From a virus (lineage: Duplodnaviria; Heunggongvirae; Uroviricota; Caudoviricetes): 47,797 bases of DNA. Made by a program: the position numbers and the translations under genes. The stretch lies in the IMG/VR virus record IMGVR_UViG_2571042438_000008; one strand, written 5' to 3'. Below the pieces are notes generated by a model, which was given only the letters and a program-made list of their open reading frames with translations, did no database searches and was not told the origin of the DNA. Shown here in pieces: positions 3,167 through 8,892 of the stretch (position 1 is the first letter of the stretch; every line of letters begins with the position of its first letter).

Positions 3167-3783
3167 TGGCATTCAGAATGAGTGAACAATCACGTACCGT
3201 AAAAATTTATAACCTGCTGGCCGGAACTAATGAGTTTATTGGTGAAGGTGACGCATATATTCCACCTCATACAGGGCTGCCAGCTAATTCTACAGATATC
3301 GCCCCACCGGAAATTCCTGCTGGCTTTGTGGCAGTTTTTAACAGTGAAAATGAATCGTGGAATATTGTTGAAGACCATCGTGGTAAAACGGTCTATGACG
3401 TGGCGTCGGGGGACGCATTGTTTATTTCTGAACTCGGACCGCTACCAGAGAATGTCACCTGGTTGTCGCCAGCAGGGGAGTATCAGAAGTGGGACGGCGT
3501 ATCCTGGGTGAATGATGAGGAAGCAGAAAAACTGTTTCGGATACGGGAAGCGGAAGAGAAAAAGGCAAGGTTGATCCAGGAAGCAACAGATAACATCGCA
3601 ATTCTGCAGGATGCAGTTAATCTTGAAATAGCAACAAACGAGGAAAATTCACAACTGGATTCCTGGAGAAAATACAGAGTATTAGTGAGTAGAATTGACA
3701 CCAGTACAGCTCCGGATATCGTATGGCCAGAGCTGATGAATCAGGGTTATGTTCGGGAGGACGAGCAGATAACTTCAGACTGA
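3166..3783 (+). CDS. Tail fiber assembly protein (gpG/Tfa-like)
   Basis: Start overlaps the fiber stop (TAATG); size and position typical of Tfa chaperones. Confidence 0.65.
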
Positions 3784-4310
3784 AATTTAGTGATGAATGT
3801 TGAATCATCAGGAATATCATGCAATACCAATGCATGAGCACCTATTGTGACATTGTTTCCTATACGCACTTTGCCACCAAGAATGGTGGCATTACAACCA
3901 ATGGTCACATTATGCCCTATAACAATATCCATATCATTAAATTCCCCGCGAAGTCCAATAGTTACTCCGGGCTTAATTGAACAATTTTCACCGATTGTTA
4001 CTTTGTGACCGATAACAACACTGTTGAGATAAGAAATATCAAAGCCTTTCCCTATATTTACAGTTAAAGGGACTGTTACATTATATTTATCAAGAATGAA
4101 ACGTTCTATTTTTCCCGCAATCTTCCGACAGTATCCGCCTTTATCAAAAAGGTATTTGGCTATGCGCCACCAAAATAAATAACGAACCCTTCTATGTTTT
4201 ATTGCGCGAACAATTGCCTTTCGCCAGGAGAAAGGACGCTCGCTACCGATTACTTCATAGTGAATACAGTCTTTAAGTTCATTAATATTCATATCTTTAT
4301 TATTCAGCAT
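3747..4310 (-). CDS. Hexapeptide-repeat (left-handed beta-helix) acetyltransferase, moron-like
   Basis: Repeated [LIV]-G-x-x-x-x hexapeptides ([47 protein letters not shown]); opposite strand to the tail operon. Confidence 0.6.
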
Positions 4311-4725
4311 AAGATAATCATGTGACCAATTATTGTAATAATTTTAATGGTATGTTTCTACTGGCTATCCAGCGTGTCTGATATCCAGTAACAAATCGTC
4401 AACACGGGTGCAATCAAATGGTGAGTGTTAAGACTGACCACTTATTACCAGGTATGAGTGGCCAGCATTAAATCAGAACAGCCCTTTAACTGAACTGGCC
4501 GCGCTGTTAAGGGATGATGTCACCTTATCTTTGAAGCCGGACAGCATATTGCTGAACGATGAGTTTACCGCAGGTTTCTGGCTGGGAATCATTGACTGGA
4601 GTTAGGCCAGTAGTATGATGCTCGCAAAACGAGATCCAATTTAGATCCTTTTACTGGTGGATTATCGTTCGATCAGTGAGAGACTTCGTGCATGACCGAA
4701 AGTGTTGTGGTAGAGTTCTCTTAAA

Positions 4726-4740
4726 ACCACGTAACGTGGT
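4726..4740. promoter_or_regulatory. Repressor-type operator dyad ACCACGTAACGTGGT in the repA upstream region
   Basis: Perfect 5-N5-5 inverted repeat identical in arms to the three dyads in the cI/cro-like intergenic region; followed directly by TATGAT (4741-4746). Confidence 0.5.
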
Positions 4741-4780
4741 TATGATTGTGGGTGTCTGGTTGGAAAGTGACCAGATATGG

Positions 4781-4861
4781 AAACAAAAAGCCCGCAGATA
4801 AATCTGCGGGCTTCTTGCGACATCCACGGAAAACCAACAACTAACCATGGGCGCCTCGACA
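4781..4861 (-). ncRNA. Candidate CopA-like antisense RNA of the repA leader (~80 nt)
   Basis: Minus-strand perfect -10 TATAAT (plus coords 4868-4873) with weak -35; minus-strand intrinsic terminator (10-bp GC-rich stem 4789-4812 followed by a U-run); lies inside a 16-bp inverted repeat of the leader (4823-4838 / 4875-4890). Confidence 0.45.
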
Positions 4862-4905
4862 ACTCCCATTATACGTTGGTTTTCCGTGGACGCAAGAGCG
4901 AACAT

Positions 4906-5754
4906 ATGGATAGACCAATGCCGTCTCTACGTTCAGCTTACGTTTGTAATTTGTCGCCGGAGTTCCAGCCTCCAAAGCACCATACGCACAAGCTGCCGCT
5001 GGTGTTATCTGATGCTTTACAGCGCATTAATGGGCGTGATCTTACGTGTGAGGTTGCGTTCTACGTTAATCAACCGTCAGAGCGGAAGCGCCGGATAAAC
5101 GAGCATCGTCGTCGGGCGATTAATGCTGTGATCGCTGCGATTTTGCACCATGTAAACATCATTTCTAAGCGGGTTCTGGCCAGTGCTGAGGCGTTGGCTG
5201 ATTTTTGCGGCCTGTCTACCGTATCCGAAGCTGGGAACAAGTCTATAACGCGCTGTACAAGGGCGTTGTCGCAACTGAAAGCGTTAGGTTTTATTGATTA
5301 TGAACGTCGCTGGGATCGGGTGAATAAACAGTATTGGCCAGCGAAAATAGAGATTCGTGATCAACTGCTGGAAACCGTTGGTATTACTGAACAAGCATGG
5401 AGACGTGCGGTTAGCCAGAAACTTAATTACTTCAATGCGAAGAATAGCGAACGGCTTAAAAAAGCGATAACGGAGGCTGATTATAAGCGTATTGTTATTC
5501 AGGAGCAGATGGAGAATGTATGGCATCAGAGGAAGACGGCCAGAGAGATAAAGGCAAAACAGAAAGCAGCGGAGAGAGCTGCGCGTCTTGTTCGGGAAAA
5601 GGGAGAGGCCGAACTTCGTCATCAAATCACTAGAGAGGTTAGCCAGGAATTTGCTGATGGCATGTATCCTGGAGCTGACCTTGCATATTTACGATCCCTC
5701 GTTGAGCAGCGTTATAACAGGTTAAGAAAGACCTGGAAATCACTCCAACATTAA
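4906..5754 (+). CDS. repA: Replication initiator RepA, IncFII (RepFIIA) family
   Basis: Translation aligns with R100/R1 RepA1 as recalled (RRRAINAVIAAIL..., SITRCTRALSQLKALGFIDYE vs SITRATRALTFLSELGLITYQ); start chosen at the in-frame ATG 4906 by length; the ORF is open upstream to 4777. Confidence 0.85.
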   Translation: MDRPMPSLRSAYVCNLSPEFQPPKHHTHKLPLVLSDALQRINGRDLTCEVAFYVNQPSERKRRINEHRRRAINAVIAAILHHVNIISKRVLASAEALADFCGLSTVSEAGNKSITRCTRALSQLKALGFIDYERRWDRVNKQYWPAKIEIRDQLLETVGITEQAWRRAVSQKLNYFNAKNSERLKKAITEADYKRIVIQEQMENVWHQRKTAREIKAKQKAAERAARLVREKGEAELRHQITREVSQEFADGMYPGADLAYLRSLVEQRYNRLRKTWKSLQH

Positions 5755-5895
5755 CCCACCTGAATGATGAATCCGGTTTTACCGGAGGATTATCTACGTC
5801 GCAATAAAATATCTGTTCAAAAAACAATCTAAATTAATTTTCTCTAAACCGGAACACAGCAAAAATATCGCCTTTACAGGCATCGGCTAATAAAG

Positions 5896-5904
5896 TTATC
5901 CACA
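5896..5904 (+). promoter_or_regulatory. DnaA box TTATCCACA in the candidate oriR downstream of repA
   Basis: Perfect 9-mer consensus ~140 bp after the repA stop in an AT-rich tract, followed by a GC-rich hairpin cluster (6004-6200). Confidence 0.5.
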
Positions 5905-6385
5905 GTTTTGATATGTATATGCAAATGGTTTTTTATAATAGATGCACTAAACAAATAAATGCAAAATCACTTTCTTTTATTAAGACTTTCTTTATTTAAC
6001 TTACGCAGGCTTTGCCTGTGAATATGTTCGCCCTTGCAGCGAGCTAAAGCTCGCGCCGGTTCGAGTCGCTACGCTCAAATATACCTCCTCCGGCACTTGC
6101 CGGAGGCATGGAGCAGCCTGATCATCCTTTTCGAAACGGCGCGTTTCGAACTATACAAAATCAATTTATATAAGGCCGAAATAAGGCCTACGGCCGGGCT
6201 TTGCAGGAGGAAGGGGCGAGCCTTATCAATAAACGTCGAGAAATACGCACACAGTAGCCATCAGAACGCGATAAAACGTAAGAAACATCATTTCCTATTA
6301 GACATAGAAAACTTGTCTTATACGCAATGTAGTAAATTTCTATTGCCACATAGGAAAAGATTTCCTACCATCGTAGATATAATAA

Positions 6386-7141: not shown

Positions 7142-7216
7142 AGCCCCGTTTTTCTTGAAATTATAACCCACAGGTTATATAGTTAGTGATATAAACTACA
7201 GGTTATAGGATTGAGC

Positions 7217-7564
7217 ATGTGGACGGTACTTTTTAGCCAGCGATTTGACGACTGGCTAAATGAGCAAGAAGACGCTCTTCAGGAAAAGGTTTTGGCTGAT
7301 TTGAAAAAGCTACAGGTTTACGGACCTGAGTTACCCAGGCCATATGCCGATACCGTAAAAGGTTCTCGGTACAAAAATATGAAAGAGCTTCGCGTTCAGT
7401 TTTCTGGCCGTCCGATAAGAGCCTTTTATGCGTTCGATCCGATTCGTCGGGCCATCGTTCTTTGTGCAGGAGACAAAAGTAACGATAAGCGGTTTTATAA
7501 AAAACTGGTGCGTATAGCTGAGGATGAGTTTGCAGCACATCTGAACACACTGGAGAGCAAGTAA
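7217..7564 (+). CDS. Type II toxin, HigB/RelE-like (addiction module killer family)
   Basis: ~115 aa basic protein immediately upstream of, and overlapping (TAATG), an XRE-HTH antitoxin-like gene; AGGA RBS before ATG 7217. Confidence 0.55.
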   Translation: MWTVLFSQRFDDWLNEQEDALQEKVLADLKKLQVYGPELPRPYADTVKGSRYKNMKELRVQFSGRPIRAFYAFDPIRRAIVLCAGDKSNDKRFYKKLVRIAEDEFAAHLNTLESK

Positions 7565-7863
7565 TGAGAACATTAGATGAGGTGATTGCCAGCCGTTCAC
7601 CTGAAAGCCAGGCGCGAATTAAAGAAATGGCAGATGAGATGATTCTTGAGGTCGGCTTGCAGATGATGCGTGAAGAACTCCAGTTATCACAAAAACAGGT
7701 TGCTGAGGCGATGGGTATAAGCCAGCCAGCAGTAACAAAGCTGGAGCAGCGCGGAAATGATTTAAAGCTGGCGACATTAAAGCGTTACGTTGAAGCTATG
7801 GGAGGCAAATTAAGCCTGGATGTTGAGCTTCCTACAGGAAAGCGAGTAGCGTTCCATGTCTAA
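7564..7863 (+). CDS. Type II antitoxin, HigA-like XRE-family HTH
   Basis: HTH segment LSQKQVAEAMGISQPAVTKLE; 99 aa; toxin-first gene order. Confidence 0.6.
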   Translation: MRTLDEVIASRSPESQARIKEMADEMILEVGLQMMREELQLSQKQVAEAMGISQPAVTKLEQRGNDLKLATLKRYVEAMGGKLSLDVELPTGKRVAFHV

Positions 7864-8829: not shown

Positions 8830-8892
8830 ACACAATGCGCAAAGTGTCATTTTGACACTTTGCGAGTGTTAATATTGTTCGAGGAGGATGCT

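Follow-up and report, generated by a model that had tools for sequence, protein, structure and literature searches.

How does a replicon of the IncFII_repA family limit the synthesis of its initiator, RepA, when the leader of repA encodes a putative antisense RNA, surrounds the promoter of that RNA with a large inverted repeat and apparently has no leader peptide? The question is raised by the 47.8-kb stretch of DNA analysed here (the 'window', that is, the whole of IMG/VR virus record IMGVR_UViG_2571042438_000008), which is a ~48-kb Escherichia coli phage-plasmid. The initial annotation of this DNA had taken the repA leader for a CopA/CopT-like countertranscript arrangement as in IncFII copy control. 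The part of that interpretation which postulates an antisense copy-control RNA stands, whereas membership of the CopA/CopT family and an R1-type mode of working do not. We suggest instead a three-helix translational switch, composed of an anti-sequestor, a sequestor and the start region of repA, and judge from the sequences that this full model has a probability of about 0.55. The elements themselves, their conservation and their covariation are seen directly, by sequence and by comparison.

According to the model, a constitutive minus-strand promoter in the repA leader (TTGCGT-16-TATAAT) would give rise to an antisense RNA of 76–80 nucleotides (nt) with two stem-loops, SL-I for recognition and SL-II as terminator. 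In the ON state of the sense leader, 4813-4838 would pair with 4875-4897, so that the UGGA box and the repA start codon, AUG 4918, are accessible. In the OFF state, the antisense RNA would nucleate at the loop 4839-4844, perhaps also at 4856-4860, and then pair with the 5' arm of the repeat; the freed 3' arm would fold onto 4905-4920 and sequester the start region. More plasmid copies would mean more antisense RNA and less RepA synthesis, i.e., negative feedback, in which neither a leader peptide nor a pseudoknot would take part. The features concerned are as follows (positions in the window, strand).

4592-4619, plus: predicted sigma-70 promoter of the repA mRNA, TTGACT-16-TATGAT (promoter scan)
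4781-4860, minus: predicted antisense RNA or countertranscript (fold, comparison, covariance)
4784-4817, minus: antisense terminator hairpin, core 4790-4799/4802-4811, U-run 4781-4789
4813-4838, plus: 5' half of the ON helix (extension 4813-4819 and 5' arm 4823-4838), the putative anti-sequestor, within the antisense target
4839-4846, no strand assigned: hypervariable patch, candidate recognition or incompatibility determinant (variable columns by alignment 4833-4844)
4868-4873, minus: antisense -10 TATAAT (plus strand ATTATA), inside the repeat loop (read directly)
4874-4897, plus: 3' arm and extension, the putative switching strand, pairing with the 5' arm (ON) or the start-region box (OFF)
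4890-4895, minus: antisense -35 TTGCGT, 16 nt upstream of the -10 (read directly)
4905-4920, plus: start-region box, UAUGGA (with the Shine-Dalgarno-like UGGA) followed by AGACCAAUG with AUG 4918, the putative partner of the 3' arm when OFF
4918-5754, plus: repA, initiator of the IncFII_repA family, Pfam PF02387 (start-codon comparison)

The predicted antisense gene

The leaders that we compared come from plasmid records (L001-L003), IMG/VR loci found by protein (L004-L013), assemblies with RepA homologues (L017-L021) and a pattern scan of metagenomes and IMG/VR (L023-L043). They comprise 16 distinct sequences of the design found in the window, which we call Type A, with RepA identities from 100% down to 62% (L018). 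In all 16, including L018, the antisense promoter is invariant and the terminator either invariant or compensated. The initial annotation had described a minus-strand -10 hexamer TATAAT in the repeat loop, a weak -35 and, about 80 nt downstream on that strand, a 10-bp GC-rich hairpin with a U-run, and all of these were recovered. TATAAT is unchanged in 16/16 Type A variants and also in the relatives with another leader design, Type C (described below). The -35 TTGCGT matches the consensus at 3/6 positions, retaining the TTG, and is invariant; the 3' arm itself serves as the 16-nt spacer (4874-4889), and among 15 sequences GGACGCAAG is invariant and the spacer is free of indels. A consensus promoter scanner, which needs at least 4/6 per hexamer, did not list this promoter. 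The terminator core, GCCCGCAGAT/ATCTGCGGGC, has 10 G+C-rich base pairs, is extendable to 16 bp, and is followed on the minus strand by UUUUUGUUU. A terminator scanner missed it, probably because the maximal stem takes in part of the T-run. One of its pairs has changed from A-U to G-C, with compensation, in 4/15 sequences, and there is no minus-strand gene upstream that it might serve.

The RNA delimited by these signals would run from 4860 to ~4781 (76–80 nt). Its 80-nt form folds into two hairpins with -39.2 kcal/mol (z = -6.15 relative to shuffled sequences), namely, after a 5' tail, SL-I (4819-4822/4852-4855 and 4824-4829/4845-4850, with a 15-nt loop) and SL-II, which is the terminator. The same two-hairpin fold is found for all 16 variants, which support a countertranscript of 76–85 nt, and SL-I is kept though its stem and loop sequences differ. 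The RNAalifold consensus contains three covarying pairs as well as five invariant G.U pairs (two each at the base of SL-I and in SL-II, plus a predominant U.G close to the loop of SL-I). Since these G.U pairs are C.A mismatches on the plus strand, the fold is specific to the minus-strand RNA. A covariance model built from it scores 100–107 bits on its own training sequences, as it must by construction, and 31 bits on the Type C locus L015, on which it was not trained.

Several other identities for this RNA were considered and rejected. A longer antisense transcript carrying both arms of the repeat would need a promoter further upstream, and no promoter-like site was seen on the minus strand between 4891 and 5300. 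A coding function is not indicated, since the only AUG lacks a Shine-Dalgarno sequence, no stop codon precedes the terminator, and indels in the hypervariable patch shift the frame. Searches of Rfam at permissive E-values gave only sub-threshold matches to Thr_leader, CsrC and microRNA families, of a generic hairpin-plus-terminator shape. The terminator halves of Thr_leader and CsrC align to the antisense terminator, and the Thr_leader match (4781-4891, minus strand; 31.8 bits vs a threshold of 55) arises as the repeat and the terminator together mimic the shape of an attenuator; it is a matter of generic shape, because no promoter was found upstream of 4891 on that strand. The invariant promoter, the compensated terminator and the conserved SL-I thus lend support to the ~80-nt antisense RNA against the repA leader that the initial annotation had predicted. 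Judged from sequence, such an RNA very probably exists, and a role against the repA leader in copy-number control is strongly favoured; its transcription, its binding to the leader and the direction of regulation are what we infer.

The target transcript would start at ~4626, giving a leader of ~290 nt. The hexamers of its predicted promoter, TTGACT...TAT(G/C)AT, are conserved in lineages from Salmonella, Klebsiella and metagenomes, and no convincing second sense promoter was seen downstream of the hairpins on direct reading. Two side observations concern the same leader. A conserved pair GATCC-N7-GATCC (4633-4650) lies right at the predicted mRNA start, with more GATC sites nearby in other lineages, which suggests a possible involvement of Dam or SeqA, and a further conserved hairpin, AACCACG-N4-CGTGGTT with a variable loop, is found at 4725-4741.

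The inverted repeat and the predicted ON helix

The arms of the inverted repeat, 4823-4838 (TCCACGGAAAACCAAC) and 4875-4890 (GTTGGTTTTCCGTGGA), are 16 nt long, 100% complementary and 36 nt apart. As the initial annotation had noticed, the repeat is perfect; moreover, no other perfect inverted repeat in the window with a loop of at most 60 nt is as long. None of 200 first-order Markov random sequences contained an inverted repeat of 16 bp or more, and even at 12 bp or more the mean count was 0.18. The antisense RNA starts within the repeat loop and so carries one arm only, both arms being present only in the sense leader. Hence, the 16-bp repeat is a helix of the sense leader and not a part of the antisense RNA.

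In the sense leader, the repeat gains seven further pairs (4813-4819 with 4891-4897, after a 3-nt bulge), which results in a 23-bp helix, here called the ON helix, the dominant element of the leader's minimum-free-energy fold (z = -8.8); the helix is also recovered independently by RNAalifold on seven lineages. In an alignment of 15 sequences, 97.8% of cells are paired, vs 32–46% if the partners are slid by 1–3 columns. Three pairs have changed on both sides (columns 48/117, 50/115 and 58/112; G-C to A-U or C-G, A-U to G-C, and A-U to U-A), and U.G wobbles and a bulge are tolerated among the lineages. Type C relatives keep an interrupted 16-bp repeat around the same TATAAT, the sequences of the arms being wholly different: the core CTCGACAACTCCGATTATA is flanked there by TTGTCAGCC..GCCACAC and GTGTGGC..GGCTGACAA, with compensatory differences among the Type C members themselves. 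Because complementarity is kept where sequence is not, and because wobbles are tolerated, we consider the repeat to be an RNA helix rather than a protein-binding site. Type C was used only as support for the ON helix and for the antisense architecture.

The predicted OFF hairpin and the start region

For the OFF state, the antisense target (4781-4860) was blocked in the folding calculation for eight lineages. In 8/8, the 3' arm, once released, pairs with the start region, at -15.6 to -20.2 kcal/mol; in the window, 4874-4888 pairs with 4905-4920 and a small CGC/GCG hairpin forms between them. The mean unpaired probability over positions -13 to +5 of AUG 4918 falls from 0.52–0.65 to 0.13–0.47. 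The target ends at 4860, 58 nt before AUG 4918, and does not overlap the ribosome-binding site. In silico, blocking this upstream target is thus predicted to induce a hairpin over the Shine-Dalgarno/AUG region. Transcription attenuation was considered and set aside, there being no U-run after either the ON helix or the OFF hairpin.

The OFF hairpin is conserved as well: 93.1% of cells are paired, vs 25–49% for the slid controls, and of the changes two are compensatory and six one-sided. Both helices are linked by two positions of the 3' arm. The change of U to A at 4880 is matched by A to U at 4834 (ON) and by A to U at 4914 (OFF), and that of C to U at 4885 by G to A at 4828 (ON) and by G to A at 4908 (OFF). 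A switch would be expected to show just this, namely a strand that covaries with each of two partners that exclude one another. Likewise, the CAUGGA box of the start region is conserved though AUG 4906 is out of frame with repA in 5/8 lineages, because, as we interpret it, the 3' arm pairs with this box; the UGGA in the box is probably a weak Shine-Dalgarno sequence for AUG 4918.

AUG 4918 is the only in-frame start that is conserved across the lineages, AUG 4906 being in frame with repA in the window itself, and we infer that AUG 4918 is the start codon used. RefSeq and the NCBI annotation pipeline PGAP place the start of RepA in E. coli plasmids at ATG 4777, which gives a protein of 325–326 amino acids (aa; cluster P0001, 525 member sequences). 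The extended frame, 4777-5754, crosses the antisense gene and the switch region; the lineages from Salmonella, Klebsiella and metagenomes do not conserve ATG 4777, and in 4/9 E. coli variants an indel of +2 or +5 nt in the patch puts it out of the repA frame. From the sequences, the start at ATG 4777 is probably an over-extended annotation. The protein itself matches PF02387 with E = 7.2e-44 and 150.7 bits (cut-off 22.9) over profile positions 2–272 of 275, is alignable with RepA1 of R100 over 97 aa only (40% identity), and has its nearest annotated plasmid relatives outside its own clade in plasmids of the pKPC_CAV1042-44 type (37% identity). By these comparisons it is a divergent member of the IncFII_repA family.

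Predicted recognition between the two RNAs

Both RNAs are predicted to be single-stranded at 4839-4844, where the SL-I loop of the antisense RNA would meet the 5' part of the loop of the sense ON hairpin, and at 4856-4860, where the 5' tail of the antisense RNA would meet the sense loop. The only other shared single-stranded sites are the 4-nt terminator loop and the 3' tail. Judged by joint unpaired probability, 4839-4844 is the only sizeable site. It lies in the hypervariable patch: 15 sequences of the E. coli type, ~99% identical over 1.17 kb, show eight alleles at ~4833-4846, including AACTAA (the window), AACAACAAT (ATCC 25922), AATTAA, AACAATAT, AAACATAT, AAAACAAT and AACAAT. All internal indels of the 1.17-kb region fall within the patch, and variable columns are enriched there (p = 4e-12). 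A kissing-loop specificity determinant diversifying under incompatibility would be expected to vary in this way, which makes the patch a candidate for such a determinant. Two patch alleles were found together in 0/71 E. coli genomes, all with a single copy of the replicon, a count that is uninformative at a prevalence of 1.3%.

Points weighing against the switch

Several observations weigh against the three-helix switch. First, the ON helix (-22 to -40 kcal/mol) is far more stable than the OFF hairpin, so that the antisense RNA must either target the leader while it is being transcribed or open a 23-bp helix by invasion. Second, in L002, L019 and L021 the OFF hairpin stops just short of the AUG, for which the folds give no increase in pairing, and the prediction of the OFF state is not robust for the Type C relatives. 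Third, the comparative sample is narrow: 9/15 aligned sequences are near-identical, the structures tested were derived from the window sequence, and the informative sample amounts to ~6 lineages. Fourth, some signals are weak or have no clear place in the model. The antisense -35 agrees with the consensus at only half of its positions; the Shine-Dalgarno sequence UGGA for AUG 4918 is weak, with a spacing of 7–13 nt across lineages; and a conserved AAGAG and AUG 4906 are without clear role. Fifth, the patch is a (CAA)n repeat, and slippage in an unconstrained loop suffices to explain its variability without selection. Finally, the conservation of 4849-4860 is not explained by the switch. The whole segment 4847-4878, GGGCGCCTCGACA(A/C)CTCCCATTATACGTTGG, is invariant in 16/16 Type A variants; the antisense -10 and transcription start account for only part of this invariance, and that of 4849-4860 calls for another sequence-specific constraint, such as a site for a chaperone or protein, or a second nucleation site.

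Alternative explanations

The best-surviving alternative, in our view unlikely, is that the antisense RNA acts mainly by mRNA decay, with RNase III cleaving the 80-bp duplex, or by transcriptional interference, the helices mattering little. An extended perfect duplex would be a substrate of RNase III, the convergent promoters are ~240 bp apart and could interfere, and the terminator hairpin, read on the plus strand, is followed by UUCUU and might attenuate sense transcripts. This explanation, however, leaves unaccounted for both the conservation of the OFF hairpin with its three-way covariation and the arms that flank the promoter in Type A as well as in Type C. It is also compatible with the switch, as an additional layer of control.

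Control of the IncB/IncI-alpha/IncL-M type is very improbable for the window. In that type, a leader peptide is blocked by the antisense RNA, and so is an activator pseudoknot in which a UUGGCG loop pairs with a site by the repA ribosome-binding site. The target loop UUGGCG and the complementary CGCCAA next to the ribosome-binding site are reportedly the pairing partners. Exactly this arrangement is present in two relatives (L022 and L014), and the ON helix of the window is functionally similar in that it is a long-range pairing by the ribosome-binding site with which the antisense RNA would compete. However, neither PK-repBA (RF01089) nor PK-repZ (RF01087) of Rfam is matched in the window or in L018; 4626-4960 contains none of the sequences TTGGCG, CGCCAA, TTGGC and GCCAA; a conserved leader peptide is lacking; and the pairing in the window is a plain nested 23-bp helix, not a pseudoknot.

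Marginally less probable still is control as in R1 and R100, in which a CopA-like RNA blocks a tap-like leader peptide to which repA is coupled. This mechanism is well established for R1, where CopA keeps tap from being translated and a second promoter is under repression by CopB (PMC5717011). The window resembles it in having an antisense gene in the repA leader and an initiator in Pfam IncFII_repA; moreover, ATG 4847 lies inside the antisense target, and its frame spans the 3' arm and the repA start. The comparison with CopA of R1/R100 that the initial annotation had called for turned out negative: the Rfam CopA model (RF00042, gathering score 60 bits) has no match at E <= 10 in 4300-5300, whereas the positive control, R100 CopA, scores 106.3 bits and Type B relatives (L014 and L022, see below) score 34–37 bits. 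With a distant RepA, no tap-like or copB-like open reading frame (ORF), and a recognition loop predicted in the 5' stem-loop, the likeness to IncFII control drawn by that annotation is not supported.

Its failure to find a tap-like leader peptide ending at the repA start, by contrast, was borne out, as no ORF ends there in any of eight lineages, and the leader has no copB-like ORF, the interval between the promoter (4592-4619) and repA being free of conserved ORFs altogether. Three candidates were rejected. The ORF from ATG 4847 has no Shine-Dalgarno sequence, begins with CTG in L019 and L021, and ends between +29 and +181 from the repA AUG; the ORF from AUG 4906 ends between +29 and +328 and shares the inconstant frame described above, so that neither is conserved; and a mini-ORF of 9–10 codons at ~4692 is broken in L010, L017 and L019. 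In addition, any ORF running across the patch is thrown out of frame by the +2- and +5-nt indels there.

Least probable is a purely DNA-level role of the repeat without any RNA switch, as half-sites for a dimeric regulator or as a cruciform controlling the loop promoter: the arms do flank the minus-strand -10, one of them is the promoter spacer, and symmetric half-sites would also change together, but the half-sites are 52 bp apart from centre to centre, U.G wobbles and a bulge are tolerated although in DNA they amount to mismatches, the arms of Type A and Type C differ wholly with complementarity kept, the start codon has a third, directly repeated partner that also covaries, and no regulator gene is conserved beside the locus, the upstream genes differing by lineage.

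Relation to known control systems

The three-helix switch proposed for the window shares with R1/R100 a constitutive antisense RNA of ~80–90 nt from the leader of an IncFII_repA-family gene, with two stem-loops and an intrinsic terminator, and presumably a post-transcriptional inhibition of RepA synthesis that serves as copy-number sensor (PMC5717011). It differs in lacking a match to the CopA model, tap and copB, in a RepA that aligns over 97 aa only, and in the position of the candidate recognition loop, which is carried by the 5' stem-loop instead of the terminator stem-loop. The window antisense RNA has its 5' end 58 nt from the repA AUG, whereas the CopA match in R100 ends 18 nt from the start of tap.

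Plasmids of groups IncI1, IncB and IncL/M add an activator pseudoknot (PMC8053102). As in the IncB/IncI-alpha/IncL-M systems (repBA, repYZ), an antisense RNA in the window would compete with a long-range pairing by the initiator ribosome-binding site that is needed for translation (PMC8053102). Unlike those systems, the window lacks a leader peptide, a UUGGCG/CGCCAA pair and the topology of a pseudoknot, and its nested 23-bp helix forms without help from the ribosome. The repR-repA system of IncI2 (pHNSHP45) likewise follows an IncFII-like logic, with an antisense RNA of ~108 nt and without a pseudoknot of the IncI1 type (PMC8053102); it needs, however, a 19-aa leader peptide overlapping repA and a ProQ/FinO protein, neither of which is evident in the window.

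A parallel in logic comes from Gram-positive plasmids. RNAI of the staphylococcal plasmid pSK41 is ~83 nt long, has two stem-loops, and binds the leader well upstream of the start region, whereupon an induced hairpin sequesters the ribosome-binding site (PMC5703833). As with pSK41 RNAI and the pre-emptor of pT181, the antisense RNA of the window would take one strand of a pre-emptive helix and a downstream hairpin would form (PMC5703833). The initiator families (RepA_N and Rep_trans) and the hosts are nevertheless unrelated, the sequences are not homologous, and the induced hairpin of pT181 is a transcription terminator, whereas the OFF hairpin of the window has no U-run. The likeness to pSK41 is thus one of functional class and not of homology family.

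Three upstream designs in one RepA clade

Within a RepA clade of ~60% mutual identity, three upstream designs are found. Type A is that of the window and of L018. Type B, the classical one, is represented by L014, whose RepA is 63% identical to that of the window. Type C (L015, L016 and L045-L048) has a Type-A-like module of antisense gene and helix before a 162-aa RepA-N-like ORF, which overlaps repA by ATGA and was called in L015, L016, L045 and L046, and not in L047 or L048. Both L014 and, outside the clade, L022 (pKPC_CAV1042-44) match PK-repBA (49.3 and 56.7 bits, respectively, vs a gathering score of 45) and have an ORF of 15–17 codons whose stop overlaps the repA start. Control modules and initiators appear to be exchanged as units. 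Since Type B is found in this clade and beyond it, we regard Type B as the probable ancestral design and Type A as one that was probably derived or acquired. The genes upstream of the Type A leader vary by lineage (acetyltransferase, invertase or tail-fibre assembly).

Two of these loci deserve brief description. In L014, positions 2359-2500 hold the PK-repBA match, a UUGGCG loop and a 15-codon leader ORF that overlaps a GTG start, i.e., a classical control region of the IncL/M type, which is common to L022 (1850-1980), whose RepA is 37% identical to that of the window. In L015, the ORF preceding repA (2016-2504; also in L016, L045 and L046, from Citrobacter freundii and metagenomes) encodes 158–162 aa with weak IncFII_repA similarity and resembles a duplicate of the RepA N-terminal domain, and the antisense/helix module lies upstream of that ORF and not of repA.

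The phage-plasmid and neighbouring features

The repA region of the window is 98–100% identical to that of ~60 circular, non-mobilizable plasmids of 47–49 kb, among them the 48.5-kb plasmid NZ_CP009073 of E. coli ATCC 25922, and three phages for which Yersinia pestis was the isolation host (vB_YpM_39, 41 and 44) match it too. The phage-plasmid family is found as well in plasmid records of Salmonella, Klebsiella and Escherichia albertii/fergusonii. The replicon is present in 71 of 5426 complete E. coli genomes, each time plasmid-borne and in single copy. MOB-suite assigned no replicon to the related plasmids, literature searches yielded no description of the control region of this replicon, and scans of genome contigs found nothing. 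The pSLy3 phage-plasmid group belongs to the unrelated SSU5 supergroup.

Upstream of the replicon (3747-4600), similarity to plasmids of the ATCC 25922 type starts only at 4564, within the last ~30 nt of their DNA-invertase gene. The window has a minus-strand gene for a hexapeptide-repeat acyltransferase (3747-4310) and ~250 nt of non-coding DNA in place of the invertase and of a second, inverted tail-fibre-assembly gene, and this variant has apparently lost tail-fibre inversion. On the 3' side of repA (5800-6200), an A+T-rich stretch (~5800-6000) precedes a number of G+C-rich hairpins such as CCTCCGGCACTTGCCGGAGG and TTTCGAAACGGCGCGTTTCGAA; by analogy with IncFII replicons, it is plausible that this region contains the origin or priming signals. 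Just downstream of the replicon (7211-7863) lies a pair encoding a toxin of the RelE/ParE family and a helix-turn-helix antitoxin, so annotated in related plasmids. At 8838-8864, CGCAAAGTGTCA with a 3-nt loop is the sole other perfect short-loop inverted repeat of at least 12 bp in the window besides the two in the repA leader.

Implications

No earlier description of copy-number control in this phage-plasmid family was found. The present analysis would also correct a widespread annotation of RepA, namely as a protein of 325–326 aa starting at ATG 4777. It is tempting to go one step further than the switch itself and to propose, at slightly less than even odds, that the leader contains a previously undescribed, leader-peptide-independent control module of IncFII_repA replicons with its antisense promoter in the loop of the ON helix, which converges on the logic of Gram-positive pSK41 and pT181 and has apparently replaced the ancestral module of antisense RNA, leader peptide and pseudoknot within one RepA clade, and in which alleles of the 6–8-nt loop-loop patch may define incompatibility types among otherwise identical phage-plasmids.

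If this proves true, a design free of leader peptides would exist in a family whose characterised members (R1, IncI1, IncB, IncL/M and IncI2) all couple RepA synthesis to a leader peptide, and control modules would have been swapped on one RepA clade, with Types A, B and C occurring at ~60% RepA identity. The window would then provide a compact switch made entirely of nucleic acid, and the patch allele would be a candidate marker for incompatibility typing of these phage-plasmids, for which replicon typing now fails.

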